Assembly: GCA_040905425.1 (NCBI GenBank)
Contig: JBBDRO010000047.1
Location: 1-39,587 of the forward strand
DNA length: 39,587 bases
Reading direction: 5' to 3'
DNA from: Gemmatimonadota bacterium
GTDB lineage: Bacteria; Gemmatimonadota; Gemmatimonadetes; Longimicrobiales; RSA9
A program made the position numbers and the translations under genes. Every line of letters starts with the position of its first letter. Within the stretch, counting starts at the first letter, position 1. Below the pieces are notes generated by a model. The model saw only the letters and a program-made list of their open reading frames with translations, was not told the origin of the DNA and did no database searches. Of this stretch, positions 593-19,939 are shown piece by piece.

Positions 593-858
593 CGGTCCTC
601 CGGCTCCCGGGCCTCCAGCTCCGTCCGCGCCGATGCCAGATCCTCGGCGAGCGAGGACGCCTCCGTTTGATCCAGACGGGGAAGTGAGCCCAGCAGCGCC
701 GGCAGATCGCCCAGCCGCGTAGCCGTCGGCACCGGCGACAGCTCCGCCACCGGCTTCCCTCCTCGAACGATCACGAAATGCTCCCGGCGATACACTACCC
801 GGTTTACATAAGCGGAGAAGTTCCGGATGAGATCGGTGACATTAGCATGTATTCGCAT
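580..858 (-). CDS. Phd/YefM-family antitoxin
   Basis: 92 aa; NVTDLIRNFSAYVNRV...FVIVRGGKPVAELSP is a Phd/YefM N-domain pattern; acidic C-terminus; directly upstream of vapC. Confidence 0.88.
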   Translation of the reverse strand: MRIHANVTDLIRNFSAYVNRVVYRREHFVIVRGGKPVAELSPVPTATRLGDLPALLGSLPRLDQTEASSLAEDLASARTELEAREPEDRWES

Positions 859-860
859 AG

Positions 861-877
861 AATCATATTATATGATT
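861..877 (-). promoter_or_regulatory. TA operator palindrome containing the -10 box
   Basis: AATCATA-TTA-TATGATT inverted repeat; the minus strand reads TATAAT (872-867) 8 nt before the antitoxin ATG. Confidence 0.75.
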
Positions 878-978
878 TAGCGCTTGAATACCAGCGGGCT
901 GCGGTGGCAACGGGTGGGGGCGGTGCCACTGCTCACCCGTCCTGGCTGTGCCCCCGGTAATGATCAGGAGGTAATTCT

Positions 979-1128
979 GCCCAACGGCACCCCGCGGGGC
1001 GGCGATTGTGCATTTTGGCCCGCCTGGCACGCCATAATGCGCAATCCGCACCAGCCCGGAATCACCTTTGTGCGTTTTTACGTCCAGGGCGGGCCAAAGT
1101 GCACAAGCGCCGGCGCAACGGGGGCGTT
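979..1128. repeat. Long imperfect inverted repeat (about 150 bp hairpin), weakly attC/REP-like
   Basis: TTGTGCATTTTGGCCCGCCTGG (1006-1027) pairs with CCAGGGCGGGCCAAAGTGCACAA (1084-1106); pairing extends imperfectly inward and outward to GCCCAAC (979-985) and GTT (1126-1128). Confidence 0.65.
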
Positions 1129-1232
1129 TTTGCATTTTTGCACTCGCCCGGTCCCCGCACGCCCGCCGCACGGCCGCACGCACGCCCGCCGCGCCGATCC
1201 GCACACCGTCCGTCCACCCGACGAGCGCTCCC

Positions 1233-2159
1233 TCACCGCCACCCACCCACCGTATCCGGCTGCACCACGATCCACGGCGGGCTGTAGCGCTCCGTCTCCG
1301 CCAGGTGGAACACGGGGCGCCGCACGCCCGTGGCCAGGAGTTGGAGATAGCCGGCGGTGTAGAAGCGGACCTGGATCTCGCCGCGGATGCCGAACGTCTC
1401 CACGCGGTGGATGTCACCCATCGGCACGTCGGCCAGGCCCGCGATGCCGCCGGGCATTTTTTCGTCATCGAGAAAGACCGGCGGCTGCGCCACCGCCTTG
1501 ATCCCCGCAATTCCGCGTCGAGCGCCAGAGCGAGAGCCGCCGACGGACGTCCCGCCGTACACGCGGCCCATGCGTCCGAGGTCGAGGCCGTACATCATGG
1601 GCATCCGCGTGCACATCGACTCCGTGGGATCGTTGAGATTACATCGGACCACGGGCATGTGCGGACCCAACGCCAGGAACTCCAGGCCGTGGACCGCCCC
1701 TGTCTCCAGGATCTTGTCCCGGTCGAACGCCCGGTAGAAGCCCGCGCCGATCAGGATGTAGGGGTGCGCCCGTGCCCTGGCCTGCGAATTGAGGCGGTCA
1801 TTGTACGCCCGCACCGCCTCGAGTTCGACCGGCTTCGGGGCGAGCCGTATGCGCAGGGGCGTTCTCTGCGGCAGCACCGCCGCCGGAAAGGCGTCCGCGT
1901 AGCCCAATTGCCCCACCGTCAGCAAGTAGAGGCGCTCCTCGAGGCCGGTGAAGACGAACCAGCCGCCGTCGTTCGTGACGGTGTAACGGTTCAGCGCGGA
2001 GATGCGCACTAGGGTGCCGGCCAGCGGCGCGCCGGTGATGGAGTCCACCACCTGGCCCCGTAGCACGGGAGGCTCCTGCGCCTGGATCGGACTGGCCAGG
2101 GCGGCGAGCGCACTGCACAGGACGGCGGCGCGTAGCGGATACCGCGTGAGCGGGGGCAT
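1233..2159 (-). CDS. Secreted carboxypeptidase-regulatory-like domain protein with a C-terminal TonB-plug-like region and no barrel
   Basis: Signal peptide ending IQA-Q; LRGQVVDSITGAPLAGTLV...TNDGGWF...LGY Ig-like domain; PVFLDD...DIHRVETF plug-like motif; 308 aa. Confidence 0.78.
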   Translation of the reverse strand: MPPLTRYPLRAAVLCSALAALASPIQAQEPPVLRGQVVDSITGAPLAGTLVRISALNRYTVTNDGGWFVFTGLEERLYLLTVGQLGYADAFPAAVLPQRTPLRIRLAPKPVELEAVRAYNDRLNSQARARAHPYILIGAGFYRAFDRDKILETGAVHGLEFLALGPHMPVVRCNLNDPTESMCTRMPMMYGLDLGRMGRVYGGTSVGGSRSGARRGIAGIKAVAQPPVFLDDEKMPGGIAGLADVPMGDIHRVETFGIRGEIQVRFYTAGYLQLLATGVRRPVFHLAETERYSPPWIVVQPDTVGGWR

Positions 2160-2174
2160 GGTTGGATCGCCTTC

Positions 2175-2196
2175 ACCTCCAGACCGGTCTGGAGGT
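2175..2196. promoter_or_regulatory. Perfect 22-bp palindrome in the divergent intergenic region
   Basis: ACCTCCAGACCGGTCTGGAGGT is self-complementary; TTGACC on the minus strand overlaps its end. Confidence 0.55.
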
Positions 2197-2417
2197 CAAA
2201 CGTGGGCCAGGGGGATGCTGACGGCGGTGTGGCGGACGGAAGTCCGGTCGCGATCGGCTCACCAGGAGGAGGTGCACCGCCTGACGAACGGTACCATCAG
2301 CCGCGTCACCCGGTCAATGTGCTTGAAAACCAGCCGGCGGCCACGCCCCTCCCCGCTTGCGTCCCCCGCGCGCCGCCGGGTACGTTCGGAGCATCCGACC
2401 CAGAGACCCGAGGAGCC

Positions 2418-4100
2418 ATGCCGCCTGGGAAGAAACGCACCTCCGGTGGGCTGAAGCTGCGCCCCGCCCCCAAGGGCCGCCCGGTCATGAGCGAGCCGCT
2501 GGATCAGGTGCGCCGCCTGCTCGGCGCGCGCCCCCGCCGCCCCGACCTGCTGATCGAGCACCTGCACGTCCTCCAGGATGCGCTCGGCCATCTGCCCGTG
2601 GCGCACCTGAACGCGTTGGCGGCCGAAATGGGGCTGGCGCCGGCCGAGGTCTACGAGGTGGCCACCTTCTACCATCATTTCGACATCGTGGACGAGGGAG
2701 AGGCGCCGCCGCCGGCGCTCACCGTGCGCGTGTGCGAGAGCATTGCCTGTCACATGGCGGGGGCCGAGGCGCTGCACGCGGAGCTGGCCGGGCGGGAGGC
2801 GGACGGCGTGCGGGTGCTGCGGGCGCCGTGCGTGGGGCGCTGCGAGCAGGCGCCCGTGGCGGTGGTGGGCACCAACCCGGTGGACCGCGCCACGGCGGCG
2901 AAGGTGGATGAGGCGGTGCGCTCGGAGGCCACGGAGGCGGCGCTTCCGGGGGGCGTCGCTTATGAAGAGTACAGGAAGGGCGGCGGATATGAGGTCCTGC
3001 GCGCGTGCGTGACGGGCGAGCGGAGCCGCGAGGAGGTCATCGAGACGGTGCTGGCGTCCGGGCTTAAGGGGCTCGGCGGCGCGGGCTTTCCCACCGGCAA
3101 GAAATGGCAGTTCGTGCGCGCAGAGGCGGGGCCGCGGCTCATGGCGCTGAACGCCGACGAGGGCGAGCCGGGCACCTTCAAGGACCGCTTCTGCATGGAG
3201 ACGGACCCGCACCGGGTGCTGGAGGGCGTGCTCATCGCGGCGTGGGTGATCGAGGCGGATGAGGTCTTCTTCTACCTGCGTGACGAGTACGCCGCGGCGC
3301 GCGGCGTCCTGACCCGGGAGATCGAGGCGCTCTACGCGGACCCGCCGTGCGCGCTGCCGGCCTTCCAGCTGCGGCGGGGTGCGGGGGCGTACATCTGCGG
3401 GGAGGAGACGTCGCTCATCGAGTCCATCGAGGGCAAACGGGGGGAGCCGCGGCTGCGCCCGCCCTTCCCCGCGCAGGTGGGTATCTTCGGCCGGCCCACC
3501 CTGGTGCAGAACGTGGAGACGGTCTTCTGGCTGCGGGAGATCCTGGAGGACGGCGCGGAGGCCTTTGCGGCGCGCGGCAAGGAGGGCCATCCCGGCGTGC
3601 GCTACTTCTCCGTGAGCGGGCGGGTGAAGGAGCCGGGGGTGTACCTGGCGCCGAACGGCGTGACCGCGCGCGAGCTGGTGGAGATGGCGGGGGGCATGGC
3701 CGAGGGGCACACGCTCTACGGCTACCTGCCGGGCGGCGCGTCGGGCGGCATCCTGCCGGCGCGGCTGGCGGACCTGCCGCTGGACTTCGGCGTGCTGGCC
3801 GAGCACGGCTGCTTCATCGGCTCGGCGGCGGTGGTCATCCTCTCGGACCAGGACAGTGCGCGCGAGGCGGCGCACAACCTCATGCACTTCTTTGCGCACG
3901 AGAGCTGCGGCAAGTGCACGCCGTGCCGCGCGGGCACGGAAAAGGCCACGGTGCTGATGGCCGAGCAGGACTGGCGCCTGCCGCTGCTGGATGACCTCTC
4001 CGCCGCCATGGTGGATGCCTCCATCTGCGGCCTGGGGCAGGCGGCCCCGAACGCGTACGAGAGCGTGAAGCGATTCTTTCCGCAGGAGCTGGACGCATGA
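2418..4100 (+). CDS. NAD-dependent formate dehydrogenase beta (diaphorase) subunit, NuoE+NuoF-like fusion
   Basis: ATG after GAGGAG at 2418; 2Fe-2S ligands (CESIAC, CVGRC), GLGGAGFPTGKKW, NADEGEPGTFKD, GAGAYICGEE and ESCGKCTPC...ICGLG motifs. Confidence 0.92.
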   Translation: MPPGKKRTSGGLKLRPAPKGRPVMSEPLDQVRRLLGARPRRPDLLIEHLHVLQDALGHLPVAHLNALAAEMGLAPAEVYEVATFYHHFDIVDEGEAPPPALTVRVCESIACHMAGAEALHAELAGREADGVRVLRAPCVGRCEQAPVAVVGTNPVDRATAAKVDEAVRSEATEAALPGGVAYEEYRKGGGYEVLRACVTGERSREEVIETVLASGLKGLGGAGFPTGKKWQFVRAEAGPRLMALNADEGEPGTFKDRFCMETDPHRVLEGVLIAAWVIEADEVFFYLRDEYAAARGVLTREIEALYADPPCALPAFQLRRGAGAYICGEETSLIESIEGKRGEPRLRPPFPAQVGIFGRPTLVQNVETVFWLREILEDGAEAFAARGKEGHPGVRYFSVSGRVKEPGVYLAPNGVTARELVEMAGGMAEGHTLYGYLPGGASGGILPARLADLPLDFGVLAEHGCFIGSAAVVILSDQDSAREAAHNLMHFFAHESCGKCTPCRAGTEKATVLMAEQDWRLPLLDDLSAAMVDASICGLGQAAPNAYESVKRFFPQELDA

Positions 4101-7100
4101 GCGGCATCGACGGCGCCTCCAGCAGCGCGCCCCTGGAGCCGGGCACCAACCCGGTGGGTCCGCAGGGCACGGAGCCGTGGAGCGGGCTGTGGTCGGGGCA
4201 GAATCCCGACGGCGGCGCCCTGGCCGTGCCGGTGGCCACGAGCGCCCGCACCTCGCCGCGGCACGAGATCGAGCAGCGGCTGGGCTGGCCTCCCGCGAGC
4301 GGCGGAGAGCCGGTCCCCTTCGAGCTGGACGGCCAGTCGGTGACGGCCGCGCCGGGGGAGACCATCCTGGAGGCGGCGGCGCGGCACGGCGTGGCCATCC
4401 CGCACCTCTGCTACACGGAGGGGATGCGGCCGGACGGCAACTGTCGCTCGTGCGTGGTGGAGGTGGAGGGCGAGCGCGTGCTGGCGCCCTCCTGCTGCCG
4501 GCGCCCGACGGAGGGCATGAAGGTGCAGAGCGCCAGCGAGCGCGCGCTCCGCAGCCAGCGCACCGTGGTGGAGCTGCTCCTCTCCGACCACCCGGAGACG
4601 CCGCACAGCGCCGCGTCCGAGCTGGCGCACTGGGCCCGCAAGCTGAAGGTGGGCACGCCGCGCTTCCCGGCGGCCGCCATGCCCGCGCCGGACCTCTCGC
4701 ACCCCGGCATCGAGGTGCGCCTGGACGCCTGCATCAAATGTACGCGCTGCGTGCGCGCCTGCCGCGAGGTGCAGGTGAATGACGTCATCGGCTACGCCGG
4801 CCGGGGCGCGGCCGCAAAGATCGTCTTCGACTTCGACGACCCCATGGGGGAGTCCACCTGCGTGGCGTGCGGCGAGTGCGTGCGGGCGTGCCCCACGGGC
4901 GCGCTACTGCCGGCGCTGCTGCCGCTCGCGCGGGGGAACGGGGATGCGGCGGCGGGCAACGGGAAGCGCGCTGGTGAGGTGATGGGGGACGTCGCTTCAA
5001 AGAGTGCGGCGGCGGCCACCACGAACGGCAAGCCGGCCGCCGGCTGGACACCCGCGGAGGAGCTGGTGCCGTCGCTCTGTCCGTACTGCGGCGTGGGGTG
5101 CCAGACCACCTACCAGATTGCCGACAACCGTATCCTGCGGGTGAGCGGGCGGGAGGGGCCGGCCAACCTGGGGCGGCTGTGCGTGAAGGGTCGCTTCGGC
5201 TTCGACTACGTGCACCACCCGCAGCGGCTGACGAAGCCGCTCGTGCGGCGCGACGACGTGCCCAAGGACGCTACCAAGCTGGTGGACCCCGGCAACCCGC
5301 TGGAGGCCTTCCGCGAGGCCACGTGGGAGGAGGCGCTGGAGCGCGCGGCGGCCGGCCTCACGCGCATCCGGGACGAGCACGGCGGCAACGCGCTGGCCGG
5401 CTTCGGCTCGGCCAAGGGGAGCAACGAGGAGGCCTACCTCTTCCAGAAGCTGGTGCGCGTGGGCTTCGGCACCAACAACGTGGACCACTGCACGCGCCTG
5501 TGCCACGCCTCTTCGGTGGCCGCGCTCATGGAGAACCTCTCCTCGGGCGCGGTGTCCAACCCGGTGTCGGACGTCCAGTACACGGACGTCTTCATCATCA
5601 TCGGCGCCAATCCCACCGTGAACCATCCGGTGGCCGCCACGTTCATGAAGAACGCCATCGAGCGGGGCGCCAAGCTCATCCTCATTGACCCGCGGAAGAC
5701 GGAACTCGCGCGCCTGGCGGAGTACTCGCTGCAGTTCAAGCCGGACACGGACGTGGCGCTGCTGAACGCCATGATGCACGTCATCGTGGCGGAGGGGCTG
5801 GTGGACGAGGCGTTCGTGCGTGAGCGGACCAAGGGCTTCGACGAGCTGAAGCGGGTGCTGGAGCCCTACACGCCGGAAGCCATGGCGGAGGTGTGCGGCG
5901 TCCCGGCCGAGACCATCCGCGCCGCCGCGCGGCTCTATGGGTCCGCGGGCAAGGCAATGATCTTCTGGGGGATGGGCATCAGCCAGCACGTGCACGGCAC
6001 GGACAACTCCCGCTGCCTCATCAACCTGGCGCTCATGACGGGCAACGTGGGCCGGCGCGGCGTGGGGCTGCACCCGCTGCGCGGCCAGAACAACGTGCAG
6101 GGCGCCTCGGACGTGGGGCTCATCCCCATGGTCTACCCGGACTACCAGTCGGTGGCCAGCCCGAAGGCGAAGGCGTTCTTCGAGGAGCTGTGGGGCACGG
6201 AGCTGGACCCCGAGCCCGGCCTCACCGTGGTGGAGATCATGCACGCCATCAAGGCGGGGCAGATCCGCGGCATGTACATCATGGGGGAGAACCCCGCCAT
6301 GTCGGATCCCGACGTGAGCCATGCCCGCGAGGCGCTGGCCGCGCTGGACCACCTGGTGGTGCAGGACCTCTTCCTCACCGAGACGGCCAGCTTCGCGGAC
6401 GTGGTGCTGCCCGCCTCGGCCTTCCCGGAAAAGGACGGCACCTTCACGAACACGGACCGGCGCGTGCAGCTGGGCCGGAAGGCGCTGGAGATGCCGGGCG
6501 AGTGCCGCCAGGATCTGGAGCTCATCCAGGAGCTGGCCCGGCGCATGGGGCTGGACTGGGACTATGCGGGGCCCGCGGAGGTGTGGGCGGAGATCCGCCA
6601 GGCGTGCCCCTCCGTGGCCGGCATCACGTGGCAGCGCCTGGAGGAGGAGAGCGCCGTGACGTACCCGTGCCTGAAGGAGGGGGACCCCGGCCAGGAGGTC
6701 ATCTTCGTGGAGGACTTCCCCACCGCCGACGGGCGCGCCACCTTCACCCCCGCCGAGTACATGCAGGGGGACGAGCCGCCCGATGAGACCTACCCGTTCG
6801 TGCTCATCACCGGCCGCGTGCTCGAGCACTGGCACACGGGCGCCATGACGCGTCGCTCCGGCGTGCTGGACGCGCTGGAGCCCGTGCCCACGGTCACCAT
6901 CCACTCGGCCGACGCCGCCGCGCTGGGCATCGCGGACACCGAGCCCGTCACGCTGGAGACGCGACGCGGCCAGGTCACCGCCCAGGCCCGCGTGGACGAC
7001 ATGGTGGGCCGCGGCAGCGTCTTCATCCCCTTCGCCTTCGTGGAGGCGGCGGCCAACGTGCTCACCAACCCCGTGCTGGATCCCTTCGGCAAGATCCCCG

Positions 7101-7192
7101 AGTACAAGTACTGCGCGGTACGGCTGCGGCCGGCGGCGGGGGAGTTGGGAGCGCCGGGGTATGGGGTGGCGGCGGGGGTTCAGGGGGAGTGA
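4097..7192 (+). CDS. fdhF: Formate dehydrogenase alpha subunit (Mo/W-bisPGD, Cys active site, N-terminal Fe-S domains)
   Basis: IPHLC...GNCRSC, CIKCTRCVRAC, CVACGECVRACP, CPYCGVGC...LCVKG, NVDHCTRLCHAS and LRGQNNVQG motifs; ATGA overlap with the beta subunit. Confidence 0.95.
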   Translation: MSGIDGASSSAPLEPGTNPVGPQGTEPWSGLWSGQNPDGGALAVPVATSARTSPRHEIEQRLGWPPASGGEPVPFELDGQSVTAAPGETILEAAARHGVAIPHLCYTEGMRPDGNCRSCVVEVEGERVLAPSCCRRPTEGMKVQSASERALRSQRTVVELLLSDHPETPHSAASELAHWARKLKVGTPRFPAAAMPAPDLSHPGIEVRLDACIKCTRCVRACREVQVNDVIGYAGRGAAAKIVFDFDDPMGESTCVACGECVRACPTGALLPALLPLARGNGDAAAGNGKRAGEVMGDVASKSAAAATTNGKPAAGWTPAEELVPSLCPYCGVGCQTTYQIADNRILRVSGREGPANLGRLCVKGRFGFDYVHHPQRLTKPLVRRDDVPKDATKLVDPGNPLEAFREATWEEALERAAAGLTRIRDEHGGNALAGFGSAKGSNEEAYLFQKLVRVGFGTNNVDHCTRLCHASSVAALMENLSSGAVSNPVSDVQYTDVFIIIGANPTVNHPVAATFMKNAIERGAKLILIDPRKTELARLAEYSLQFKPDTDVALLNAMMHVIVAEGLVDEAFVRERTKGFDELKRVLEPYTPEAMAEVCGVPAETIRAAARLYGSAGKAMIFWGMGISQHVHGTDNSRCLINLALMTGNVGRRGVGLHPLRGQNNVQGASDVGLIPMVYPDYQSVASPKAKAFFEELWGTELDPEPGLTVVEIMHAIKAGQIRGMYIMGENPAMSDPDVSHAREALAALDHLVVQDLFLTETASFADVVLPASAFPEKDGTFTNTDRRVQLGRKALEMPGECRQDLELIQELARRMGLDWDYAGPAEVWAEIRQACPSVAGITWQRLEEESAVTYPCLKEGDPGQEVIFVEDFPTADGRATFTPAEYMQGDEPPDETYPFVLITGRVLEHWHTGAMTRRSGVLDALEPVPTVTIHSADAAALGIADTEPVTLETRRGQVTAQARVDDMVGRGSVFIPFAFVEAAANVLTNPVLDPFGKIPEYKYCAVRLRPAAGELGAPGYGVAAGVQGE

Positions 7193-7419
7193 TTTAAGCG
7201 ACGTCGCCGGGCTGGCTTGCCGGCGGAGGCCGATCGTTCGTTGCGGGGGCAAAGTGTAGGCTTCCCGGCGGGAGGGTGAGCTCCGGCGCGCAGCCTCCAT
7301 TCTCGAACAACGTTGCGCTGGATCGGTGCCCTGCACTATACCTTGGGAGCCATCGACTCTGCCCGCCATGGTGACGCCGCCTCCGCCTGCCTACGCCTGC
7401 GCCACCAACCGAGGTGAAC

Positions 7420-8088
7420 ATGGCCAACTCGCAGCCTGAATCAACCTTCCCGAGGCGTTCTCGCCGCACTGCCCCGGCCGCCAAACGTAGGACCGGCCAG
7501 ACATCGAAGCCGTCCGAGGCCGCGCGAAACGATCCGCAGCTCGGTGGCCGCGGGCGTCTACCCAACCCGGAAATCGAGCGCCTGGCCGTGGAAGCGAGAC
7601 CAAAGATGCTTGGCCTAGCAACGCGCCTCCTGCGCGACAGCCCCGCGGGCCAGTCCGTTGAGCCCGATGACCTCGTGCAGAAGGCGCTGGTGAAGGTCGT
7701 CGCCGGAGATCTGCCTCTACGGGACGTACCGTTATCCCGACGGGTGCGGAGGTTACTCACCGCCGTCGCGTTCGAGTTCCTGCACCTGCAGCGCGATACG
7801 GCGCGACACAGGGAACTCCTGCAGGAGAACCCGCCCGCTCGCCCGGTGCAGGTCCTCCCGGAAAAGGCCACCGAGCGTAGCGACCTCAGAGCGCGGATAG
7901 ATACGGCACTCGATGAGCTGCCCCCACGCCAGTGCGAGATCGCCCGGAAGTACTTCCTGGATTCGTCCCCCACCGCCGAGATCGCCGACGATCTCGGAGT
8001 AGCTAACTCGACCGTCAAGAACACGATCAGGACGGTACGAAGAAAGCTGCGGCAGGCGCTCGTGGGCATCCGGAAGGATCTCGAGTAG
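7420..8088 (+). CDS. ECF (group 4) sigma-70 factor
   Basis: Region 2-like EPDDLVQKALVKV and region 4 LDELPPRQ...AEIADDLGVANSTVKNTIRTVRRKLR; GAGGTG precedes ATG 7420; basic disordered N-terminal extension. Confidence 0.85.
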   Translation: MANSQPESTFPRRSRRTAPAAKRRTGQTSKPSEAARNDPQLGGRGRLPNPEIERLAVEARPKMLGLATRLLRDSPAGQSVEPDDLVQKALVKVVAGDLPLRDVPLSRRVRRLLTAVAFEFLHLQRDTARHRELLQENPPARPVQVLPEKATERSDLRARIDTALDELPPRQCEIARKYFLDSSPTAEIADDLGVANSTVKNTIRTVRRKLRQALVGIRKDLE

Positions 8089-8158
8089 TCCGATTGCGGG
8101 CTGCTGAGGTATTACTGTATGGCAGTAGGTCTTGAGCCAATTCGACACGGAGGTGCAT

Positions 8159-8485
8159 GTGTTTGCTTGTGAGCCGAGGGCCCTCATCCGCGTTACCGCT
8201 GGTTTCGTATGGGCGTTGGTCCTCATCGGTCTTACCGTGACGGCGTTGGCGCTGAGTCCGACCGGCGTCCAAGGTTTCGGCGGCTGCACCGCTCAGGAGG
8301 AACCTTATGGTTGTGCCTCGATTTACGGAGTGATGGATGATGCCCTATGCGGGGGCGGGCCGACCGCAAACTGCACAAACTGCCTGAAAGATCCGGCCAG
8401 CTTTTGCGCCCCCGACAACGAGGAGGTCGGATGCCAGGTCGAGAATTGCGTGCTCGATGGATACGAGCACCAGAGCAGTGGATAA
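8159..8485 (+). CDS. Small secreted cysteine-rich protein (8 Cys in the predicted mature part)
   Basis: GGAGGT at 8149-8154 then in-frame GTG 8159; hydrophobic signal (FVWALVLIGLTVTALAL...VQG) followed by an acidic, about 70-aa domain with 8 Cys. Confidence 0.75.
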   Translation: MFACEPRALIRVTAGFVWALVLIGLTVTALALSPTGVQGFGGCTAQEEPYGCASIYGVMDDALCGGGPTANCTNCLKDPASFCAPDNEEVGCQVENCVLDGYEHQSSG

Positions 8486-9635
8486 CGCCGAAGATGGGAC
8501 GGCCCTTCAGAACATGCGAGTGGCAACCGTCCCTTGGATCTCAGCCCGGAGGTTGTGCCCCGTAGATCCATGGCATGGCCTCAGCTTGTCCGCAGTGCCG
8601 CGGGCACTCAACCTCTGTGCTGTTGTCGTTTTGGCAGCCTGTGAGTTGACTGGCGACTTTTCTGCAGCCGATTTCTACGATGCTCCGCTTCTGCGCGGAG
8701 AATCCGTCAACGCAATGCCCGTGTTGGGCCAACCGTTTGAACTGCGCGTTAGCGGTGATCGACTCTGGGTAGGGGATATTGCCCTGGATCCAAGTTTGCA
8801 TATGCTCGATCTGGGTACGGTTGAGTTGCTCATGTCCATGGCCAGAAGGGGCGAGGGCCCTGGCGAGTTCAGAGGCAGCCCCCAGGTCCAGGTTCGACCT
8901 GGAGATCTCGACGGCGCTGTCTGGGTGTTTGATCGGATGCTCCAGCGGATGACACGATTTGATCCGAGGGCGCCGCTCGACGATCCCCTGGTGATTTCGC
9001 TTGCTGTCGGCGAGGGAGGGAACGCCTACCGCGCCATCTGGCTGACATCTGATCGGATCCTAGGCGTCCACGCGTCAGATGACTCGCGCTTCTCACTGTT
9101 CTCGGCAACCGGCGCACGGATGCGAACAGTTTCTGGCGAATTACTGGGGCCAGAGGATGCTTCGCGAACGCGGCGAATCCGTGAAACCGTTGGGGGATTT
9201 GTCATCTGCCCTTGGCCAGGCCGCGGCTTCGCAATCGCGTATACCCGCGCAGGTCGTATCGAATACTACAATCTTGCGGCCCAGCTCGTGCGAACCGCCG
9301 ATGTACCCTATGCTTCCAATGGCTTCGTGCCGGATGCTGACGGCGCCCTCGTACCGAATCGGGAGCGTAGTTATTATCGATCCTGCGCTGTGAATGAGGA
9401 TCGTTTATATGCAGCGTTCTCGGGCCGATTCGACGCGAATTACGCCGACAATCCAGCCACGCCTGACCGCTATGCGTCGGAGTTCCTGCATGTATTCGAC
9501 TGGACTGGAGAGTTGCAGGCGGTAAACAGGCTTGAGCCTGCCGTTCATTCGATCGAAATCTCGGCGGAAGATAGCACAATGCTCGCAACCTCTTTGACAA
9601 CTGCGGAAATTTATCGATTTCCTCTCTTGCCATGA
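8457..9635 (+). CDS. Six-bladed beta-propeller lipoprotein (TolB-like/BF3164-like); true start probably near 8586-8595
   Basis: Lipobox-like VVVLAAC; RRGEGPGEF motif; blade repeats (LWVGD, VWVFDR, LYAAFSG, LHVFDWTG). Confidence 0.8.
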   Translation: MDTSTRAVDNAEDGTALQNMRVATVPWISARRLCPVDPWHGLSLSAVPRALNLCAVVVLAACELTGDFSAADFYDAPLLRGESVNAMPVLGQPFELRVSGDRLWVGDIALDPSLHMLDLGTVELLMSMARRGEGPGEFRGSPQVQVRPGDLDGAVWVFDRMLQRMTRFDPRAPLDDPLVISLAVGEGGNAYRAIWLTSDRILGVHASDDSRFSLFSATGARMRTVSGELLGPEDASRTRRIRETVGGFVICPWPGRGFAIAYTRAGRIEYYNLAAQLVRTADVPYASNGFVPDADGALVPNRERSYYRSCAVNEDRLYAAFSGRFDANYADNPATPDRYASEFLHVFDWTGELQAVNRLEPAVHSIEISAEDSTMLATSLTTAEIYRFPLLP

Positions 9636-10378
9636 CGGATCTCTTTGATCGCTCGATGGCGCCGGACGGGCGAGTGGCCGACGACGCCCGATCGCCGCGG
9701 CGGGGCGGCAAATGGGTCGATTGGCTCGCAGCATTTACGTTAACACTGGCGGGAATGGGAGGCGCTGCAATCGTCACGGCGTGGTGGATCGCCGGTGATG
9801 GCCTGCTGGATGCGGACGCCACTACTGTGAACGCGCGACTCGACCCGGCCGAATTCGCGCGACTTACCTCATCCGGACAATGGCTGGGCGAGCGGAACGC
9901 TCCAGCGGTCCTTCTCGTCTACAATGATTACCGGTGCAGCTTCTGCAAGACGCTAGACGCATCCATCGAGCGGCTACGTAGCAAGTACCCACAACACTTT
10001 GCGGTTGTCTTTCACCATTTCGTCGATCCATCCACTCCGCATAGGCGACAATACCTCGTTCCCGAGGGGGCGGAATGCGCTGCTGAGCAAGGCGTATTTG
10101 AGGCCTTCCATCATACCGCTTTTGCGAATGCTGGCATTCTTGGCTATTCCGACGCTGCGCGCATTCTTGCGCAGACGATCGAGATTCCAAGTCCTACGGC
10201 CTTCCTCGAATGTGTTAGTTCGCGCCGACATGCAAGCACTGTAGCGGAACACTATCAGGAGGGTGCGAAGCTGGGCGTTGCTGCAACGCCGACGATGTTT
10301 CTCAATGGCAACCGTATGATTGGCGCTCTGCCTCTAACGATGCTTGACTCCTTGATTGTGGGCGAATTCCGGCGTTAG
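9632..10378 (+). CDS. Membrane-anchored DsbA-family thiol-disulfide oxidoreductase
   Basis: N-terminal TM helix; YNDYRCSFC active site; second Cys pair (AECAAEQG / LECVSS); GVAATPTMFLNG cis-Pro loop; ATGA overlap with the upstream gene. Confidence 0.9.
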   Translation: MTDLFDRSMAPDGRVADDARSPRRGGKWVDWLAAFTLTLAGMGGAAIVTAWWIAGDGLLDADATTVNARLDPAEFARLTSSGQWLGERNAPAVLLVYNDYRCSFCKTLDASIERLRSKYPQHFAVVFHHFVDPSTPHRRQYLVPEGAECAAEQGVFEAFHHTAFANAGILGYSDAARILAQTIEIPSPTAFLECVSSRRHASTVAEHYQEGAKLGVAATPTMFLNGNRMIGALPLTMLDSLIVGEFRR

Positions 10379-10407
10379 AGCACCCCAAAAGGAGTGATTA
10401 GAAGCAA

Positions 10408-11616
10408 ATGGTTAAAGGAATGATGCACCCCTTACTCCGCCTGGCCGCCTTCCAGATGCTCGTGTTGGAAATGGGCTGCAGTCCAGGGGATTATATAGGA
10501 GATGGCAGCCCAGGCGCCGTGCCTGCAATTACGCTGGATCATGTTTCGACTTTTGATGGCCATGCCTCCCTATACGGGAGCGTTCAAGCTGTTGTGGCAG
10601 ACGACAGCGGCCAAATTTATGTTTCGGACACTCAGTACCGGGGGAATCAACAAATTGTTGTCATCAGTCCAAACGGTGTACTTCGGAGGAGCATCGGCAG
10701 GCAAGGCGAAGGTCCTGGCGAATTTCAAGCTCTTGTAGGTCCCACATGGGTGGGGCAACAAATCCTTGCTATGGATGTACGGTTACGGCGCTTCACCTTT
10801 TTTGAACCGAGCGGGCGGGTCGCCCGAACCTGGGCATGGGACTGGCCGTTTGTGACCAGTGCCACGCCACCGCTGATGTCTGGGGGCAGTAGTGCATACG
10901 CATTGGTGCGGGCTGTGAATCGCCAGGTGCAAGGTCAGTCAGACTCGCAAATCGATGAGTACCTTATCTTTCGGGCGGACGGAACAGTAGAGGATGCGCC
11001 ACGCGTATCCGAGCCGGAGATGGGACCGTCTTCCGTTGTGTGCCTGATGCCAGATGGCGTCAGTTTTCAGGGCGGGCCGTTGCCTTACTTTGATCGCGGC
11101 CCGCTCCGCGCCTTTTTGCCAAATGATCGGCTCGCACTGGCTTACCGAGACACGTTTCGGATCGACATTGTAGATATCCACACCCAAGAGGTGGTAAAGA
11201 TCATCAGGCGTCCGTATCCGAGAGTATCAGTCTCGAGAGACGAATGGGAATCTCAGCCAGAAATCCAGTTCTTCCGGGACCTTGCTCGAGAAGCAGGAAC
11301 AGAACTCCGGGACAGGAATACTGGCGGGCCCTGCGCCTCGGATGACTTGCGTCCCGATTTCCTACCGATCCTGCGAACTATCGTGTCTGATGACACGGGC
11401 CAACTCCTGGTGGAAGCCACCGCCGCGGACGGAAACGGATTCACGTTCACTCTGTACGATTCCACGGGCAGCTTGATTGGCGAGACGCGAATGCCAGACC
11501 GTGACCCAGATGTGCGTCCGTACTTCAGGGGAGATCGACTTTATATTGGCACGATCGATTCGCTTGGGGTCCAGTCAATCGAAGTTTATGAGATCCGGCT
11601 CCCCTCGTTAAAGTAA
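10408..11616 (+). CDS. Six-bladed beta-propeller (NHL/TolB-like) exported protein
   Basis: Signal ending in MGC; DDSGQIYVSD, IGRQGEGPGEF and terminal DSLGVQSIEVY motifs. Confidence 0.82.
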   Translation: MVKGMMHPLLRLAAFQMLVLEMGCSPGDYIGDGSPGAVPAITLDHVSTFDGHASLYGSVQAVVADDSGQIYVSDTQYRGNQQIVVISPNGVLRRSIGRQGEGPGEFQALVGPTWVGQQILAMDVRLRRFTFFEPSGRVARTWAWDWPFVTSATPPLMSGGSSAYALVRAVNRQVQGQSDSQIDEYLIFRADGTVEDAPRVSEPEMGPSSVVCLMPDGVSFQGGPLPYFDRGPLRAFLPNDRLALAYRDTFRIDIVDIHTQEVVKIIRRPYPRVSVSRDEWESQPEIQFFRDLAREAGTELRDRNTGGPCASDDLRPDFLPILRTIVSDDTGQLLVEATAADGNGFTFTLYDSTGSLIGETRMPDRDPDVRPYFRGDRLYIGTIDSLGVQSIEVYEIRLPSLK

Positions 11617-11665
11617 AGTTCCTCTGTAGGGCAGCGTGCGCGCTTGTGCGCATCCTGCAGGCTCG

Positions 11666-13628: not shown

Positions 13629-14113
13629 GTGCGGTTTCGTCGTGCTCCCTATACCAGCCTGCTGGTATTGCTGCTCGGATTACCGCTGACACAGTCCGCT
13701 TCCGCGCAGTCGCTCGTCCGGGGCCGTCTGGAGCATGCCCCCACGGGCACCCCTGTGCGCGGCGCCGTGGTGGAGCTCCTGGGTACTTCTCAGGAGCGCT
13801 TCGCCGCTACGCTGTCGGATTCCCTGGGGGCCTTTTACCTGGTGCTCTACCTGGGCATTCAGGGCTACGAACTGGCGCCGCTGGAGGTGCGCGGTCGTGC
13901 GCAGCGGTCGCAGGCGCGGCTCACCCGTGGGCGGGATTCCTTCCAGGCGCACCGGCTGCTGGGGAAGGGCCGCTTCCTGACAGCGGAAGATGTGCACGGC
14001 ATGAACCTTCCAGCGGTGTCCCACCTCCTCCTGGGAGAGAAGGGCGCGAGGTCTACGGTGAAGGCATCAGCCGCTGCGGCGTCATGATGATCTGGACGAA
14101 GGCGGCGTGTTGA
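13629..14113 (+). pseudogene. Decayed member of the carboxypeptidase-regulatory/plug paralog array
   Basis: Lacks 36 codons present in the paralog at 15830; the conserved terminus CGVMMIWTKAA lies in a shifted frame (14051-14113) after a second large deletion. Confidence 0.8.
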
Positions 14114-14931
14114 CCTCCTTTCGGTGCGCGCCATTCGTGGCACTGCTCGTGTTGCTTGCCCCCGCGCCCGCGGTAGCTCAGGTGCTCCGCGTGCGCGTGG
14201 AGAACCCCATGACGCGGCTGCCCGTCACGGAGGCCGTCGTGGAGCTGCTGGGCACGGACGGGGAGCGCTTCGACGTGGGCGTCACCGACTCGGTGGGCGC
14301 CGTGCCGCTGTCGATTCCGGGGGCGGGCCAGTACCAGCTCCGCGCCAGCCACGCCGAGTACGGCACCACCCTCTCCGAGGTCATGACCTTTGCGGCCGAC
14401 GAGTGGAAGGACGTGCGCCTCTTCCTGGGCATCGAGAGCTATCGGCTGGCGCCCATCGAGGTGGTCGGCACCTCGAAGCGGGCCAAGCTGACTCGGGGGC
14501 AGGCGTTCTTCGACGCCCATCGGCGGGAGAGCCGCGGTGGGCGCTTCATCACGCGAGCGGAAATCGCGGCCATGGGAGCCGAGGTGGTGTCGGAGGTGTT
14601 CCGTCAGGAGGAGGGTGTCATCACGAGCATGGAGCTGGTCGGCAGCAGGATCGTGCCCACCCTGAAGTCCCTCCGCGGCTGGGGTTGCCTGTACGTGTAC
14701 GTAAACCTCCTGCGCGGCGGGGCCACGCCGAACTTCGCCGGCCAAAGTGGCGACCTGAGTATCGACACCTACCTGGACGTGGACTTCATCGAAGGGATCG
14801 AGTTCTACCGGGAGTTCAACGAGGTGCCGCGGGAGTGGGTGCATCTGGCCTGGCCGCCGGACGACGGGACGACGATGACGGTCCCGGCCCCCTGCGGCCT
14901 CATGATCATCTGGACGCGGGCCGCATGGTGA
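14110..14931 (+). CDS. Secreted carboxypeptidase-regulatory + plug-like protein (array type B)
   Basis: Signal peptide AVA-Q; AVVELLG...TDSVG, GRFIT, CLYVYVN, IEGIEFYRE, CGLMIIWTRAAW; start overlaps the upstream stop (TTGA; GTG 14107 is an alternative). Confidence 0.85.
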   Translation: MTSFRCAPFVALLVLLAPAPAVAQVLRVRVENPMTRLPVTEAVVELLGTDGERFDVGVTDSVGAVPLSIPGAGQYQLRASHAEYGTTLSEVMTFAADEWKDVRLFLGIESYRLAPIEVVGTSKRAKLTRGQAFFDAHRRESRGGRFITRAEIAAMGAEVVSEVFRQEEGVITSMELVGSRIVPTLKSLRGWGCLYVYVNLLRGGATPNFAGQSGDLSIDTYLDVDFIEGIEFYREFNEVPREWVHLAWPPDDGTTMTVPAPCGLMIIWTRAAW

Positions 14932-15176: not shown

Positions 15177-15833
15177 CGCTACCGGGTGCGGGGGTACCAC
15201 AACGAGCACGGTGTGGACCTGTCGGGTCCGCTGGAACTGGCTGCGGGCCAGCTCCGCAGCGTGGAGCTCCGGCTGCGCCGGGTGGACTACGAACTGCCCG
15301 GGATTTCCGTGGAGACGGATGCGGCGCCCCTGCTGCCTGTGGGGCAGGCCAGCTTCGACGCCCATCGCGCGCTGGGCAAGGGCGTGTTCATCGACAGCGT
15401 CCGGCTGGCCGAGAAGAAGCCGGGCTTCTTTTCGGACGCGTTGCGGGCGGAGGAGGGCGCCTACCCCATCGGACGCCGCTTCAGGTTCACCCGCTCGCCG
15501 AACGGCTGCGCCTATACCTACGTGAACCCGCTGGAAGCGCCGGAGCCGCACGACTTCCCGGGCGCCGCGCGGCAGGGCGAGTACCCGGTGGGGATCTATG
15601 CCATACGCTACGGCGAGGGTACGGACACCATCGTCTCGGCACGCCTGGCGGGCTTCAGCAGCGCCGGCCGCTATGGCCGTGCCGATCTGCTCTTCGACCC
15701 GCGCAAGCTGGCGGGCATCGAGTTCTACCGGGAAGGCAGTGAGGTGCCGCCCGACCTGGAGCCGCTGAAGGTGCGGGAATGCGCGCTCGTCATCGTATGG
15801 ACGGAGGAGGCGTGGCGGTGGAAGCAGCGATGA
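14928..15833 (+). CDS. Secreted carboxypeptidase-regulatory + plug-like protein (array type A)
   Basis: GTGA-coupled start at 14928; AAA-Q signal; GKGVFIDS, CAYTYVNP, LAGIEFYRE, CALVIVWT. Confidence 0.85.
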   Translation: MSGGGQAARAWGVTGVVALMLMGTWTFPAAAQRPIVEGRVFEGGTEAPVAGAIVELLGPQGERFAGVLSDSAGAFRLEAEGPGRYRVRGYHNEHGVDLSGPLELAAGQLRSVELRLRRVDYELPGISVETDAAPLLPVGQASFDAHRALGKGVFIDSVRLAEKKPGFFSDALRAEEGAYPIGRRFRFTRSPNGCAYTYVNPLEAPEPHDFPGAARQGEYPVGIYAIRYGEGTDTIVSARLAGFSSAGRYGRADLLFDPRKLAGIEFYREGSEVPPDLEPLKVRECALVIVWTEEAWRWKQR

Positions 15834-16729
15834 GGTCCGTGGGGCGGGTGGGTGGCCGGGCGCTGGTCCTGGCCTGCGCGCTGGCATGCTCGGGCGTCAC
15901 GGGGCTGGCCGCCCAGTCGCTCGTGCGGGGGCAGCTGCAGCACGCCTCGAGCGGGCAGCCGGTGGTGGGGGCCGTGGTGGAGCTGCTGGGTCTGGCGGAC
16001 GAGCGCTTCGGCGCCACCGTCTCCGACTCGGTGGGTATGTTCCGCCTGGTGGCGCCGGGCCCCGGCGAATACCGGGTGCGGGTGCTGCACGCGGACTATG
16101 AGCGCATCGTCTCGGAGACCCTGCGCGTGTTGAAGGACGGCGAGGGCGTGGACCTGGTGCTGTTCCTGGGCATCCAGGGCTACGAGCTGGCGCCGCTGCA
16201 GGTCATCGGCCGTGCGGACGCGCGGATGCTCAGCGGGCGCGAGTCCTTCGAGCGGCACCAGGCGCTGGGGAAGGGCCGGTTTATTACGGCGGAGGAGATC
16301 ATGGCCAAGAAGCCACCTGGCGCCTCCCACGTCCTGCGGGCCGAGGAGGGCGTCATCCCCTTCGCGCTGCCGGACGGCTCCATGGGATACCGTGCCCTGC
16401 GCGGCGCCAAGCCCTGCATCTATACGGTCATCAATGGACAGTGGGCCGGGCGGAGCGGGTTGGTGATGGTCGATAGCGGCCGCGGCGTGATCGCCGCCAC
16501 GGAAGCCATGGTCAACGCCATCACCACGCCCAATCGGGACGGACCCATCCGCCACCCCGGCCTGGACGCGCTGCTCAGCCCGGAGGAGATCGCGGGCATC
16601 GAGTTCTTCCGCGAGTTCAACGAGGTGCCGGAGGAGTGGAAGCGGGAAGCGTGGCAGGGCGGCGACGGGGCCTTCGGCGGGCTGCAGGCTTGCGGGCTGG
16701 TGGTCATCTGGACGCGGGCGGCGTGGTGA
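15830..16729 (+). CDS. Secreted carboxypeptidase-regulatory + plug-like protein (array type B)
   Basis: ATGA-coupled start; LAA-Q signal; GKGRFITAEEI, CIYTVING, IAGIEFFRE, CGLVVIWTRAAW. Confidence 0.85.
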   Translation: MRSVGRVGGRALVLACALACSGVTGLAAQSLVRGQLQHASSGQPVVGAVVELLGLADERFGATVSDSVGMFRLVAPGPGEYRVRVLHADYERIVSETLRVLKDGEGVDLVLFLGIQGYELAPLQVIGRADARMLSGRESFERHQALGKGRFITAEEIMAKKPPGASHVLRAEEGVIPFALPDGSMGYRALRGAKPCIYTVINGQWAGRSGLVMVDSGRGVIAATEAMVNAITTPNRDGPIRHPGLDALLSPEEIAGIEFFREFNEVPEEWKREAWQGGDGAFGGLQACGLVVIWTRAAW

Positions 16730-16974: not shown

Positions 16975-17646
16975 ACCTACGCCGTGCGGGCGCACCACAA
17001 CAGCTACGGCATGGCCCGCTCGCCCGTGGTGGAGCTGCGCGCCGGGGAGACGCGGGTGCTCCAACTGACGCTGGTCTATTCGGGCTATGTGCTTCCCCGG
17101 CTGCGCGTGGAGGTCGAGGCGGCACCGCTCCTCCCCGTGGGACGCGCCAGCTTCGAGGCGCACCGCGCGCTGGGAAAGGGCGTGTTCATCGATAGCATCC
17201 GTCTGGCCGAGAAGAAGCCCGGCTTCTTCACCGACGCGCTACGGGCGGAGGAGGGGATCTGGCCCACCCTGAACAGCCGGCTCTATCCGGTCTACGTCTT
17301 TCCGCGCGCGCCGAATAACTGCGCCTTCACGTACGTGAATCCGCTCCGGCCACCGAAAGTCCACGACTTCGGCGGCGCCGCGCGTCAGCGGGGGCCGCCG
17401 GCTGGTATCTACGCCCTCACCCGCGCCATGAACGGGGACACCATTGTCTCGGCGCGCCTCAGGGGGGCACATGATGGCGGTTTTTTCGGCCACGTCGACA
17501 ACTTCTTCGACCCGCGCGACCTGGCGGGCATCGAACTCTACCGGGAGGGTGACGAGGTGCCGGCCGATCTGGCACCACTGAAACACGGCCGCTGTGCGCT
17601 CATTATCGTGTGGACGAAGGCGGCATGGGAGGGGGTACGTCGATGA
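16726..17646 (+). CDS. Secreted carboxypeptidase-regulatory + plug-like protein (array type A)
   Basis: GTGA-coupled start; close paralog of 14928-15833; CAFTYVNP, LAGIELYRE, CALIIVWT. Confidence 0.85.
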   Translation: MSGGGQATRAWRVTGVVALLLTGTWTVPAAAQRPVVEGRVLEGATEAPVVGAIVELLGPRGERFAAVLSDTTGAFRLEAEGPGTYAVRAHHNSYGMARSPVVELRAGETRVLQLTLVYSGYVLPRLRVEVEAAPLLPVGRASFEAHRALGKGVFIDSIRLAEKKPGFFTDALRAEEGIWPTLNSRLYPVYVFPRAPNNCAFTYVNPLRPPKVHDFGGAARQRGPPAGIYALTRAMNGDTIVSARLRGAHDGGFFGHVDNFFDPRDLAGIELYREGDEVPADLAPLKHGRCALIIVWTKAAWEGVRR

Positions 17647-18557
17647 AGCCGCGGGCAGTGCGGGCAACCTACATGCTCCTGGCGTCCGTCCTGGCCGCCC
17701 TCCTCCCCGCCAGCGGCGTCGAGGCCCAGACGCTGGTACGCGGCAAGCTGGAGGACGCCCGCACTGGCGCGGGCGTGGCCGCCGCGGTGGTGGAGCTCCT
17801 CGGCACCGCCGGCGAGCGCTTCGGCGCCACCCTGTCAGATTCGCTCGGCGCGTTCACGCTGCCTGCGCCCGGGCCGGGAACCTACCAGTTGCGGGCCGTC
17901 CATGCCGAATACCCGCCGGCGCTTTCCACCAGGCTAACCCTGGACGAGGACCAGCAGGTGGTGGACTTCCGCCTCTACATGGGCATCGAGGGCATCGAGC
18001 TGGCGCCCATCGAGGTGATCGGCCGCTCCACCATGAAGCTGTCCCGCGGCCAGGACATCTTCGACGCCAACCAGCGGCTGGGTAAGGGCCGCTTCATCAC
18101 GGCCGAGGAGATCCGTCTCAAGAATCCGCCTGCCACCTCATACATTCTGCGGGGGGAGGAGGGGGTGGCGCCGTCAGGTATGCCGGACGGGACCATGGTG
18201 TACACGTCCACCCGCACGCTGTGCGTGCACGTGGTGGTGAATGGCCAGTGGCGCTCAACCACGCCCCGCATACGCTTCATGCGTCCGAGAGCCATCGTGG
18301 CTGCCCATGAGGCCTACATCGAGCGCATCGCGAATCCTCGGACATCCGACCCGTTTGCCGGGATGGGGGGGTGGGCTATCAGCGTGGATGCGGTCCTCAT
18401 GCCGGAGGACATCGCGGGCATGGAGTTCTACCGGGAGGACGACGAGAATCCGGAGTTCTGGATCCAGCATGCCATGGATGCCAACGAGCACCAGATTGCC
18501 CAGGACCTGCGTTTCAGCTGCGGCCTGTTGGTGATGTGGACGAAGGGCGGGTGGTGA
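17643..18557 (+). CDS. Secreted carboxypeptidase-regulatory + plug-like protein (array type B)
   Basis: ATGA-coupled start; VEA-Q signal; GKGRFITAEEI, CVHVVVNG, IAGMEFYRE, CGLLVMWTKGGW. Confidence 0.85.
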   Translation: MKPRAVRATYMLLASVLAALLPASGVEAQTLVRGKLEDARTGAGVAAAVVELLGTAGERFGATLSDSLGAFTLPAPGPGTYQLRAVHAEYPPALSTRLTLDEDQQVVDFRLYMGIEGIELAPIEVIGRSTMKLSRGQDIFDANQRLGKGRFITAEEIRLKNPPATSYILRGEEGVAPSGMPDGTMVYTSTRTLCVHVVVNGQWRSTTPRIRFMRPRAIVAAHEAYIERIANPRTSDPFAGMGGWAISVDAVLMPEDIAGMEFYREDDENPEFWIQHAMDANEHQIAQDLRFSCGLLVMWTKGGW

Positions 18558-18666
18558 AAACGGCGCGGCTGCCGGCGGTGTGGGCCGGAGGTCGCGCCGC
18601 ACACGGGTGGGAGCGCGCGGGGGTGCACAACGCTCGGAGCTTTTGCACAGCCCGGCGCGTGGTTAA

Positions 18667-18694
18667 GCCAAAATACTTTATAAAGTATTTTGGC
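18667..18694. promoter_or_regulatory. Perfect 28-bp AT-rich palindrome
   Basis: GCCAAAATACTTTATAAAGTATTTTGGC equals its own reverse complement; function unassigned. Confidence 0.6.
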
Positions 18695-19878: not shown

Positions 19879-19939
19879 CGAACCGGCGCCGCCCCCGGGA
19901 TGGTGGGAGCTACGCCGGTGCGTTGAAGTGGGACGTCGC

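Follow-up and report, generated by a model that had tools for sequence, protein, structure and literature searches.

Positions 8159-10378 of contig JBBDRO010000047.1 from a Gemmatimonadota bacterium (39,587 nucleotides; this whole stretch is called the window below) carry three adjacent genes, which encode a small Cys-rich exported protein, a propeller lipoprotein and a membrane-anchored DsbA-like protein. The best explanation, to which we assign a probability of about 0.55, is that these genes represent a single copy of a three-gene cassette, self-contained and widespread in Gemmatimonadota, which would furnish the periplasm with a disulfide-rich peptide, an enzyme that folds it and a propeller that serves as its partner. 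According to this explanation, the mini-protein would be exported by Sec and its signal peptide removed, and the mature domain of about 60-77 aa would be oxidised or isomerised to three disulfides (four in the window) by the DsbA/ScsC-like enzyme of the cassette. The folded peptide would then act together with the NHL propeller lipoprotein, taken as its dedicated binding partner, and in the genome of the window an atypical sigma factor of the extracytoplasmic function (ECF) type, encoded upstream, probably drives or co-transcribes the cassette. An earlier note on this DNA, made from the sequence alone, had proposed a horizontally acquired module of five genes, i.e., the sigma factor, the mini-protein, the DsbA-like protein and two propellers. 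Five closely spaced open reading frames (ORFs) in the same direction do fill 7414-11616, but the core of the module is three genes, not five.

The cassette is defined by its recurrence. At E ≤ 1e-10, a profile of the propeller (alignment A2) matches 131 of 401 genomes of the phylum. Loci were taken from 11 regions around the matches of the best relatives, from 60 stretches at all places with E ≤ 1e-36 and from the window, giving 72 sources; two cases were left out of the counts, a fragmentary propeller gene interrupted by a stop codon (G112:C6) and L112, where the ORF is truncated by the end of the contig. The number of strong propeller ORFs (E < 1e-30) is 74, found in 71 of the 72 sources, and one of them, at L023, belongs to a genome (G016) that is flagged as unpublished; the conclusions stand without it. 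A neighbouring ORF was counted as a peptide when it has a basic-hydrophobic N-terminus and, in the 20-95 aa that make up its tail, four or more Cys, and when it lies within 1.5 kb of the propeller. Such a peptide occurs on the same strand at 45 of the 74 strong propellers, and on the opposite strand at 2. The association of peptide and propeller is more than chance, because only 32 of 26,907 ORFs of at most 150 aa in the genome of the window pass the filter for a signal and at least four Cys.

When the propeller gene is accompanied by a DsbA gene, an arrangement with the order peptide, propeller, DsbA that is here called Type II, the peptide is nearly always there. Fourteen of the 17 propeller-DsbA loci have a peptide of the 6-Cys family, as judged by profile search, at two the peptide is of the shorter 'CC' type (L024, and L027, where it is present in three copies in tandem), and the last is without a peptide. 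The earlier note had asked whether Cys-rich ORFs recur in such neighbourhoods, and at 16 of 17 loci they do. The same trio is present at three more complete loci (L128, L141 and L144), and at two loci that are cut (L145 and L146) a 6-Cys gene lies just upstream of the propeller. These additional loci, from other collections, were found through a closer alignment (A4). The distances between DsbA sequences and those between propeller sequences co-vary over 12 cassettes (Spearman 0.80), as would be expected of a jointly inherited unit. The ORFs of about 400 aa that follow DsbA at some of the six loci of neighbour cluster 13 were tried as additional propellers, and at an hhalign probability of 12.9% they are not counted.

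The surroundings of the cassette vary. Fifteen cassettes are flanked by unrelated housekeeping genes (for tRNA synthetase, CPSase, DnaJ/GrpE, PPK, Rho and others), and the 89 ORFs of these flanks include no sigma factor, no MNIO, no metal gene and no recurrent exporter. At 10 of 12 other Type II loci the GC (guanine plus cytosine) content of the cassette is 5-8 points below that of its flanks. In the window, the GC content is 57.6% over 8132-11616 and 69.2% in the rest. The drop starts at about 8000-8100, at the end of the sigma gene, and stops at about 11650, so delimited that the segment of low GC and low GC3 (GC at third codon positions), 8090..11650, contains exactly four genes, from the mini-protein to the second propeller. 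The GC3 values are 0.96 for the formate dehydrogenase-like (fdh) region upstream, 0.77 for the sigma gene, 0.68 for the mini-protein, 0.59 for propeller 1, 0.61 for DsbA and 0.58 for propeller 2. The low GC from the mini-protein onward thus stands as the earlier note described it, with the reservation that its figure of about 50% fits the extremes, i.e., the lowest 200-nt intervals of 51.5-54%, and not the mean. Low GC and varied housekeeping flanks fit an accessory, laterally moving module, and to this extent agree with the proposed horizontal acquisition. There are no tRNA genes in the window and no convincing repeats flanking the low-GC segment, no contigs were found that join across it, and a tblastn search of plasmids gave no match to propeller 1.

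The first gene of the cassette in the window encodes a protein of 108 aa (8159..8485, plus strand). Its start is most likely the GTG at 8159, where a GGAGG sits 5 nt upstream and where the source gene call also has 108 aa (P0012); an alternative TTG start lies at 8132. The predicted Sec-type signal has an Arg at position 11, a hydrophobic helix and the cleavage motif ALA|LS, which leaves a mature part of about 77 aa with eight Cys. Alignment of the 13 peptides that stand beside related propellers (A5) gives six invariant Cys and an invariant Arg in the signal peptide. When the profile of this alignment is run against 1.84 billion representative proteins, it matches 138 at E ≤ 1e-3, most of them 85-110 aa long, and 19 at E ≤ 1e-10. 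The six Cys remain invariant in an alignment of 80 members (A6) in which the mean column identity is 20%, and they follow the pattern C-x(6-8)-C-x(9-16)-C-x(4-7)-C-x2-C-x(6-9)-C, after which comes a conserved aromatic residue. Six of the eight Cys of the mini-protein in the window make up the invariant set of the family; the other two form a C-terminal pair, which is shared with its closest relatives P0053 (40%), P0102 (47%) and L145.

By the conservation of its sequence, then, the mini-ORF is a genuine conserved gene, and the 6-Cys mini-proteins constitute a previously unnamed family of proteins of about 90-110 aa with predicted Sec signals. The part of the earlier note that read the mini-ORF as a secreted Cys-rich protein is strengthened by the 138 representatives, the signal and the six invariant Cys. 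The source databases name the members 'hypothetical protein' or not at all, and neither Pfam nor NCBIfam has a model of the family. The AlphaFold2 (AF2) model of the mini-protein, with a mean confidence (pLDDT) of 82.8, consists of the signal helix and a small all-beta domain. When this model, signal helix included, was compared with 48,161 chains by VIA-align, none reached Z ≥ 2, and with Foldseek, again with the signal helix included, there were no matches at E ≤ 0.001, the best having E 4.0. The family profile finds nothing below E 7.7 among the sequences of the PDB, and a search of the ESM Atlas gave no usable match. A missing structural match is no proof of a new fold.

Consider now the possibility that the mini-protein stays in the membrane as an anti-sigma factor of the ECF sigma factor upstream, one of the outcomes that the earlier note had named as overturning its reading. 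The mini-protein gene comes directly after the sigma gene and its product has a single hydrophobic segment, and one of two related sigma genes elsewhere in the genome, on contig C74, is also followed by a gene for a Cys-rich protein with a signal or anchor. However, the stretch ahead of the hydrophobic segment is no longer than about 20 residues (5-15 in the family), where about 50 aa or more would be expected of an anti-sigma factor, and there is no zf-HC2, RskA or other anti-sigma domain. Furthermore, small residues of the type A/S-x-A mostly precede the mature part, and 16 of the 17 Type II cassettes have no sigma gene alongside. With a cytoplasmic part so short, no domain and cassettes that do without a sigma factor, this identity has next to no probability left and is rejected here.

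A different possibility concerns the destination of the peptide. The cassette could be a competition module, with the mini-protein as an antimicrobial peptide or toxin stabilised by disulfides and the propeller lipoprotein as the immunity or release factor of the producer, which corresponds to the toxin reading of the earlier note. The peptides are very divergent outside their Cys, they occur in tandem at several loci (three at L027 and two each at L028, L032, L121 and L126), the distribution over the phylum is patchy, with several copies in some of the 131 matched genomes, and the cassette is low in GC and found in varied contexts. These properties would fit a competition module, but the Sec signal brings the peptide only to the periplasm of a diderm cell, and neither the 89 flank ORFs of the 15 cassettes nor the annotated recurrent neighbour clusters contain a conserved exporter, a C39 peptidase or a lysis gene. 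There is also no match to a bacteriocin family in Pfam or NCBIfam. We therefore regard a competition module as unlikely and, because no exporter is conserved, lean toward a peptide module of the periplasm, related to the envelope or to redox, and away from a bacteriocin that is released.

The second gene of the cassette (8595..9635, plus strand) encodes a six-bladed propeller lipoprotein of the NHL type, propeller 1, which matches PF15869 with 42.7 bits against a cut-off of 29.2. In the source gene call it has 346 aa, while the longest ORF begins at 8457, and its lipoprotein signal, MPRALNLCAVVVLAAC, ends in ...VVLAAC. The AF2 model (pLDDT 92.9) is a six-bladed NHL propeller, and its top structural matches are the NHL domain of Brat (Z 24.1, root mean square deviation, rmsd, 2.9 over 260 residues), TRIM2 (Z 22.4) and Mei-P26. 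After these comes peptidyl-alpha-hydroxyglycine amidating lyase (PAL; Z 21.2, rmsd 3.9 over 275 residues, Foldseek E 2.6e-11), and lower in the ranking are NHLRC2 (Z 19.1 and 18.4) and the sensor domain of PknD (Z 19.1). By sequence, the profile of the propellers matches chains of TRIM-type NHL domains (E 1e-13); GxGPGEF, which is conserved in the propellers, is itself the repeat motif of NHL domains.

The presence of PAL among the best structural matches, together with the position of the peptide gene immediately upstream of the propeller gene, raises the question of whether the propeller is itself an enzyme, such as a PAL-like lyase, which modifies the peptide in a Sec-dependent pathway resembling those of peptides that are made on the ribosome and modified after translation (RiPPs). 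PAL has a three-His zinc site and a catalytic Tyr/Arg. Among 76 propellers the residues that are near-invariant are Asp, Gly, Pro, Phe and Leu, and His is not one of them; the shared motifs are those of the NHL structural repeat, and NHL domains that bind RNA or protein score equally high or higher (Z 24.1 to 22.3). A maturation pathway of this kind is accordingly quite improbable, and we infer that propeller 1 is a binding scaffold rather than a PAL-like enzyme, because it matches NHL domains and carries NHL repeat motifs, and because its family has no near-invariant His. A complex of propeller 1 (residues 17-346, 76 rows) and the mature mini-protein (32-108, 13 rows), predicted without controls, received a score of 0.02 against a mark of 0.32, which is no evidence either way.

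The third gene (9632..10378, plus strand), whose start overlaps the stop of propeller 1 by 4 nt, encodes a membrane-anchored DsbA/ScsC-like protein of the thioredoxin fold, with matches to PF13462 (54.5 bits against 23.2) and PF01323 (52.9 against 25.6). It has an N-terminal hydrophobic anchor and the motif CSFC, and among the loci studied a CxxC is present in every ORF of 214-283 aa in the DsbA cluster. No gene for a partner of the DsbB or VKOR type is conserved in the cassette flanks. Its four best solved relatives are ScsC or copper-resistance proteins, found with weak E values of about 3e-5, and this invites the suggestion that the cassette is a buffer against metal or thiol stress: the Cys-rich peptide would sequester copper or another thiophilic metal, like a bufferin without MNIO, and the ScsC-like protein would keep it reduced or repair it.

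Bufferins comprise BufA1/BufA2 with the MNIO BufB and the DUF2063 protein BufC, and are controlled by SigF/NrsF. They are small, Sec-exported, Cys-rich proteins with 4-6 Cys, periplasmic and folded rather than linear, and under an ECF sigma/anti-sigma pair (PMC11626156); they share the Sec signal and small size with the mini-protein, and ECF control with the sister architecture described below. Against a metal buffer stand the weakness of the ScsC matches and the peptide family itself, in whose 80 aligned members no His or Met is conserved. The 96.7%-complete genome gives no match to MNIO (PF05114), for which a positive control from Caulobacter did match, and none was found in the neighbour clusters or flank ORFs scanned with Pfam. 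The scanned ORFs include no DUF2063 or DoxX neighbour, and the cassette flanks no metal transporter or oxidase; where a bufferin has its MNIO, the cassette has an NHL propeller and a DsbA-like protein. Neither DUF2282 nor BUF_6/12Cys or another bufferin family is matched at E ≤ 0.1 in Pfam and NCBIfam, libraries that may not hold a model of BUF_6/12Cys. A metal buffer appears distinctly unlikely.

The three-gene cassette read as a peptide with its folding enzyme and its propeller can be compared with systems that combine similar parts. Dedicated Dsb paralogs are encoded beside their clients in the case of BdbA/B with sublancin and of DsbL/DsbI with arylsulfate sulfotransferase (ASST), a propeller enzyme. 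In the cassette a DsbA-type gene is likewise encoded together with a presumed exported client, and as with ASST the neighbour is a beta-propeller. It differs from these in that there is no conserved DsbB/DsbI partner and no RiPP or glycosylation enzyme, and in that the invariant Cys are those of the mini-protein and are not family-wide in the propeller.

NHLRC2 and SOQ1 also place a thioredoxin-fold module beside a six-bladed NHL propeller, but there the two are fused, while here they are separate genes, the thioredoxin-fold protein is DsbA/ScsC-like (PF13462) instead of TlpA-like, both proteins are predicted to be periplasmic, and the cassette encodes a dedicated Cys-rich candidate client. 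In the crystal structure of NHLRC2, the Trx motif faces the binding face of the propeller (PMC6107167). Among the seven bacterial genomes covered by that paper, no operon partners were found to be conserved (PMC6107167).

The quinoprotein amine dehydrogenases offer a third comparison, in that they too have a small exported Cys-rich subunit beside a propeller and a helper for thiol redox or maturation (MauD, QhpD). The mature mini-protein, unlike their subunit, has no Trp from which tryptophan tryptophylquinone or cysteine tryptophylquinone could be made, and the window has no radical SAM protein, MauG or haem subunit. The propellers of these dehydrogenases have seven blades, and that of the cassette six NHL blades. 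At L085 a complete quinohemoprotein amine dehydrogenase (qhp) operon (75-4441) lies directly upstream of the cassette. It encodes the alpha subunit, the radical SAM protein QhpD, a small Cys-rich gamma subunit and the beta propeller; as a part of the cassette it was rejected, being a look-alike neighbour and a separate unit. A literature search, mostly at the level of listings, found no paper that describes the cassette, the 6-Cys family or the anti-sigma factors of the sister architecture.

This sister architecture, called Type I, has the order ECF sigma, anti-sigma, peptide, propeller, is without DsbA and is found at host GC. Its anti-sigma factors are proteins of 700-960 aa with an N-terminal zf-HC2 domain, TPR repeats and a C-terminal thioredoxin fold resembling AhpC/TSA; examples, all on the minus strand, are found at L030 (1655-4090), L031 (3795-6254) and L087 (6295-9180). 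The CxxC is missing from the thioredoxin-like part in 26 of 27 of them, and this domain may be a pseudo-enzyme that serves as a sensor. The Type I peptides have five Cys and a conserved juxtamembrane stretch (alignment A8). What the two architectures have in common is the joint occurrence of this propeller with an exported Cys-rich peptide and a module of the thioredoxin fold. Longer CarboxypepD_reg/Plug proteins recur beside the Type I sigma/anti-sigma loci.

The sigma gene of the window (7414..8088, plus strand) encodes an atypical ECF-type protein, which matches TIGR02937 over residues 54-216 with 64.3 bits, the cut-off being 42.9. It has a basic N-terminal extension of about 55 aa, and in Pfam sigma region 4 is above the cut-off, while region 2 is without a match. 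No cognate anti-sigma gene can be recognised beside it, and Pfam and NCBIfam find no anti-sigma, transporter or RiPP-enzyme domain in the five genes, just as the earlier note had remarked. None of 36 genomes of the same family matches this sigma factor at E ≤ 1e-8; its relatives are two paralogs with 36-39% identity on contig C74 of the same genome. Both are co-oriented with the propeller lipoprotein genes that follow them, so that all three paralogs in this genome stand directly upstream of propeller genes. A second cluster is built like that of the window and extends over C74 14000-24300 on the minus strand, with a GC content of about 59-66%. Two lipoprotein ORFs come after sigma paralog A (23591-24277, minus). 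Paralog B (19067-19753, minus) has behind it first the gene of a 9-Cys secreted protein of some 190 aa (18406-19044) and then two propeller ORFs, and contig C74 also has a DsbA-like gene at 9320-10033. Because the C74 pair stems from a recent duplication, there are about two independent cases of a sigma gene before a propeller gene.

Upstream of the sigma gene lies a conserved non-coding element (7193..7281, plus strand; alignment A7). Its first 35 nt or so form a GC-rich hairpin directly after the fdh stop codon, and the rest, ATCGTTCGT..GGGG..AAAGT, is common to the upstream regions of both C74 paralogs (19894-19989 and 24418-24513, minus strand). Over its approximately 90 nt the element is about 80% conserved upstream of the three sigma paralogs, even though the proteins are only 36-39% identical. 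A search of the whole genome with nhmmer finds strong copies (E 1e-19 to 8e-26) at three places, each of them upstream of a sigma paralog, a fourth copy on contig C111 that is mainly hairpin, and weak partial hairpin matches elsewhere. The motif occurs once in the window and in none of 100 shuffles. The element may be a shared promoter or operator. From the sigma gene to the DsbA gene there are no terminator-like sites, the single site of the scan being inside propeller 2, and no sigma-70-like promoter was detected by the scan between the genes on their coding strand. No RNA dataset that holds this stretch is listed; the four runs that hold it are DNA contigs of one sediment study. A lineage-specific regulatory link between sigma factor and cassette is plausible, because three of three sigma paralogs precede propeller genes in this genome. 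As a conserved part of the module, which is how the earlier note saw it, the sigma factor has to be given up: its GC is nearer to that of the host than to that of the cassette, and other copies of the cassette do not have it, as specified below.

The place of the second propeller in the module is weakened as well. Propeller 2 (10408..11616, plus strand) is a divergent lipoprotein with the lipobox LEMGC and only sub-threshold Pfam matches, whose relation to the propellers of alignment A3 is seen with hhalign (97.6% probability, E 4.4e-12, 229 columns). The propeller profile picks out about 77 ORFs in the 4.1-Mb genome of the window (E < 1e-3), an expansion of NHL/TolB-like propeller ORFs of about 400 aa, many with lipoprotein-like starts. 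Two more of them lie in the window, at 33988-35220 and 37883-39040 on the plus strand. An adjacent Cys peptide is found at 1 of the 77, and this one is propeller 1 itself. Propeller 2, which the earlier note had included in the module, is thus one of many divergent paralogs and a neighbour of the cassette, of which its membership is unproven. The gene after it is a convergent PF01637 ATPase. In metagenome contigs of the same study the 3' end of propeller 2 (11153-11603) also occurs as a second allele, with 32 differences in 324 nt, which accounts for up to about 43% of the summed depth and whose contig diverges from the window after 11603; at this point, which is the right edge of the low-GC segment, there is variation between strains.

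Several observations weigh against the cassette as an autonomous unit of peptide, folding enzyme and propeller partner. No filter-passing peptide is found at 29 of the 74 strong propellers, 15 of which stand alone. Many of the loci come from a few genera (g91, g40 and g80), so that the counts are not independent and therefore overstate the independent support. The distances between peptides do not follow those between propellers (Spearman 0.18). As to the enzyme, its nearest solved relatives are, on weak matches, of the ScsC type, which are copper-linked reductases or isomerases, not oxidases. Two Cys of propeller 1 outside the lipobox, C205 and C264, are conserved in its six closest relatives as well, and therefore DsbA could also serve the propeller. 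The 5-Cys peptides of Type I and the 6-Cys peptides align with hhalign at 81.5% over 13 columns, from which homology is not demonstrable. Finally, a sigma gene stands beside none of the 16 other propeller-DsbA loci and none of the three further complete loci.

A bolder proposal, which we consider possible if doubtful, sees in the 6-Cys mini-proteins peptide ligands of the periplasm with a new class of fold, which together with the NHL propeller lipoproteins would form an undescribed peptide-receptor system of Gemmatimonadota. This system would exist in two wirings, i.e., a mobile cassette with its own DsbA, and an ECF pathway in which the catalytically dead thioredoxin domain of the anti-sigma factor reads the thiol state of the peptide. 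If so, there would be a peptide-based periplasmic redox or signalling circuit without a described counterpart. Even when one stays with the self-contained cassette, a conserved and testable three-gene unit has been defined, and a new family of small proteins with three predicted disulfides named, in a phylum that is abundant in soils and sediments, yet experimentally almost untouched. The mini-protein is a candidate natural client for the pairing of thioredoxin and NHL modules, about whose function little is understood even for NHLRC2 and SOQ1, and the anti-sigma factor with its CxxC-less, thioredoxin-like domain is a lead on how some ECF pathways may sense periplasmic thiols. Should antimicrobial activity or metal binding be found in the peptides, these would provide compact disulfide scaffolds from a new source.

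The remainder of the window contains a second low-GC patch (35288-36851, 56-61% GC), which carries toxin-antitoxin genes: a PIN-domain gene (35288-35734, minus strand) with a small upstream partner (35731-36009, minus) and a HicA/HicB pair (36179-36421 and 36486-36851, plus). Four paralogs of about 300 aa with an N-terminal CarboxypepD_reg domain lie at 1233-2159 (minus) and at 14107-14931, 15779-16729 and 17610-18557 (plus). Upstream of the sigma gene, a flavoprotein of the Nuo51 type (2202-4100) is followed by a molybdopterin subunit resembling that of formate dehydrogenase and fused to ferredoxin domains (4097-7192), so that 2202-7192 looks like an NAD-linked formate dehydrogenase, with a host-typical GC3 of 0.90-0.96.

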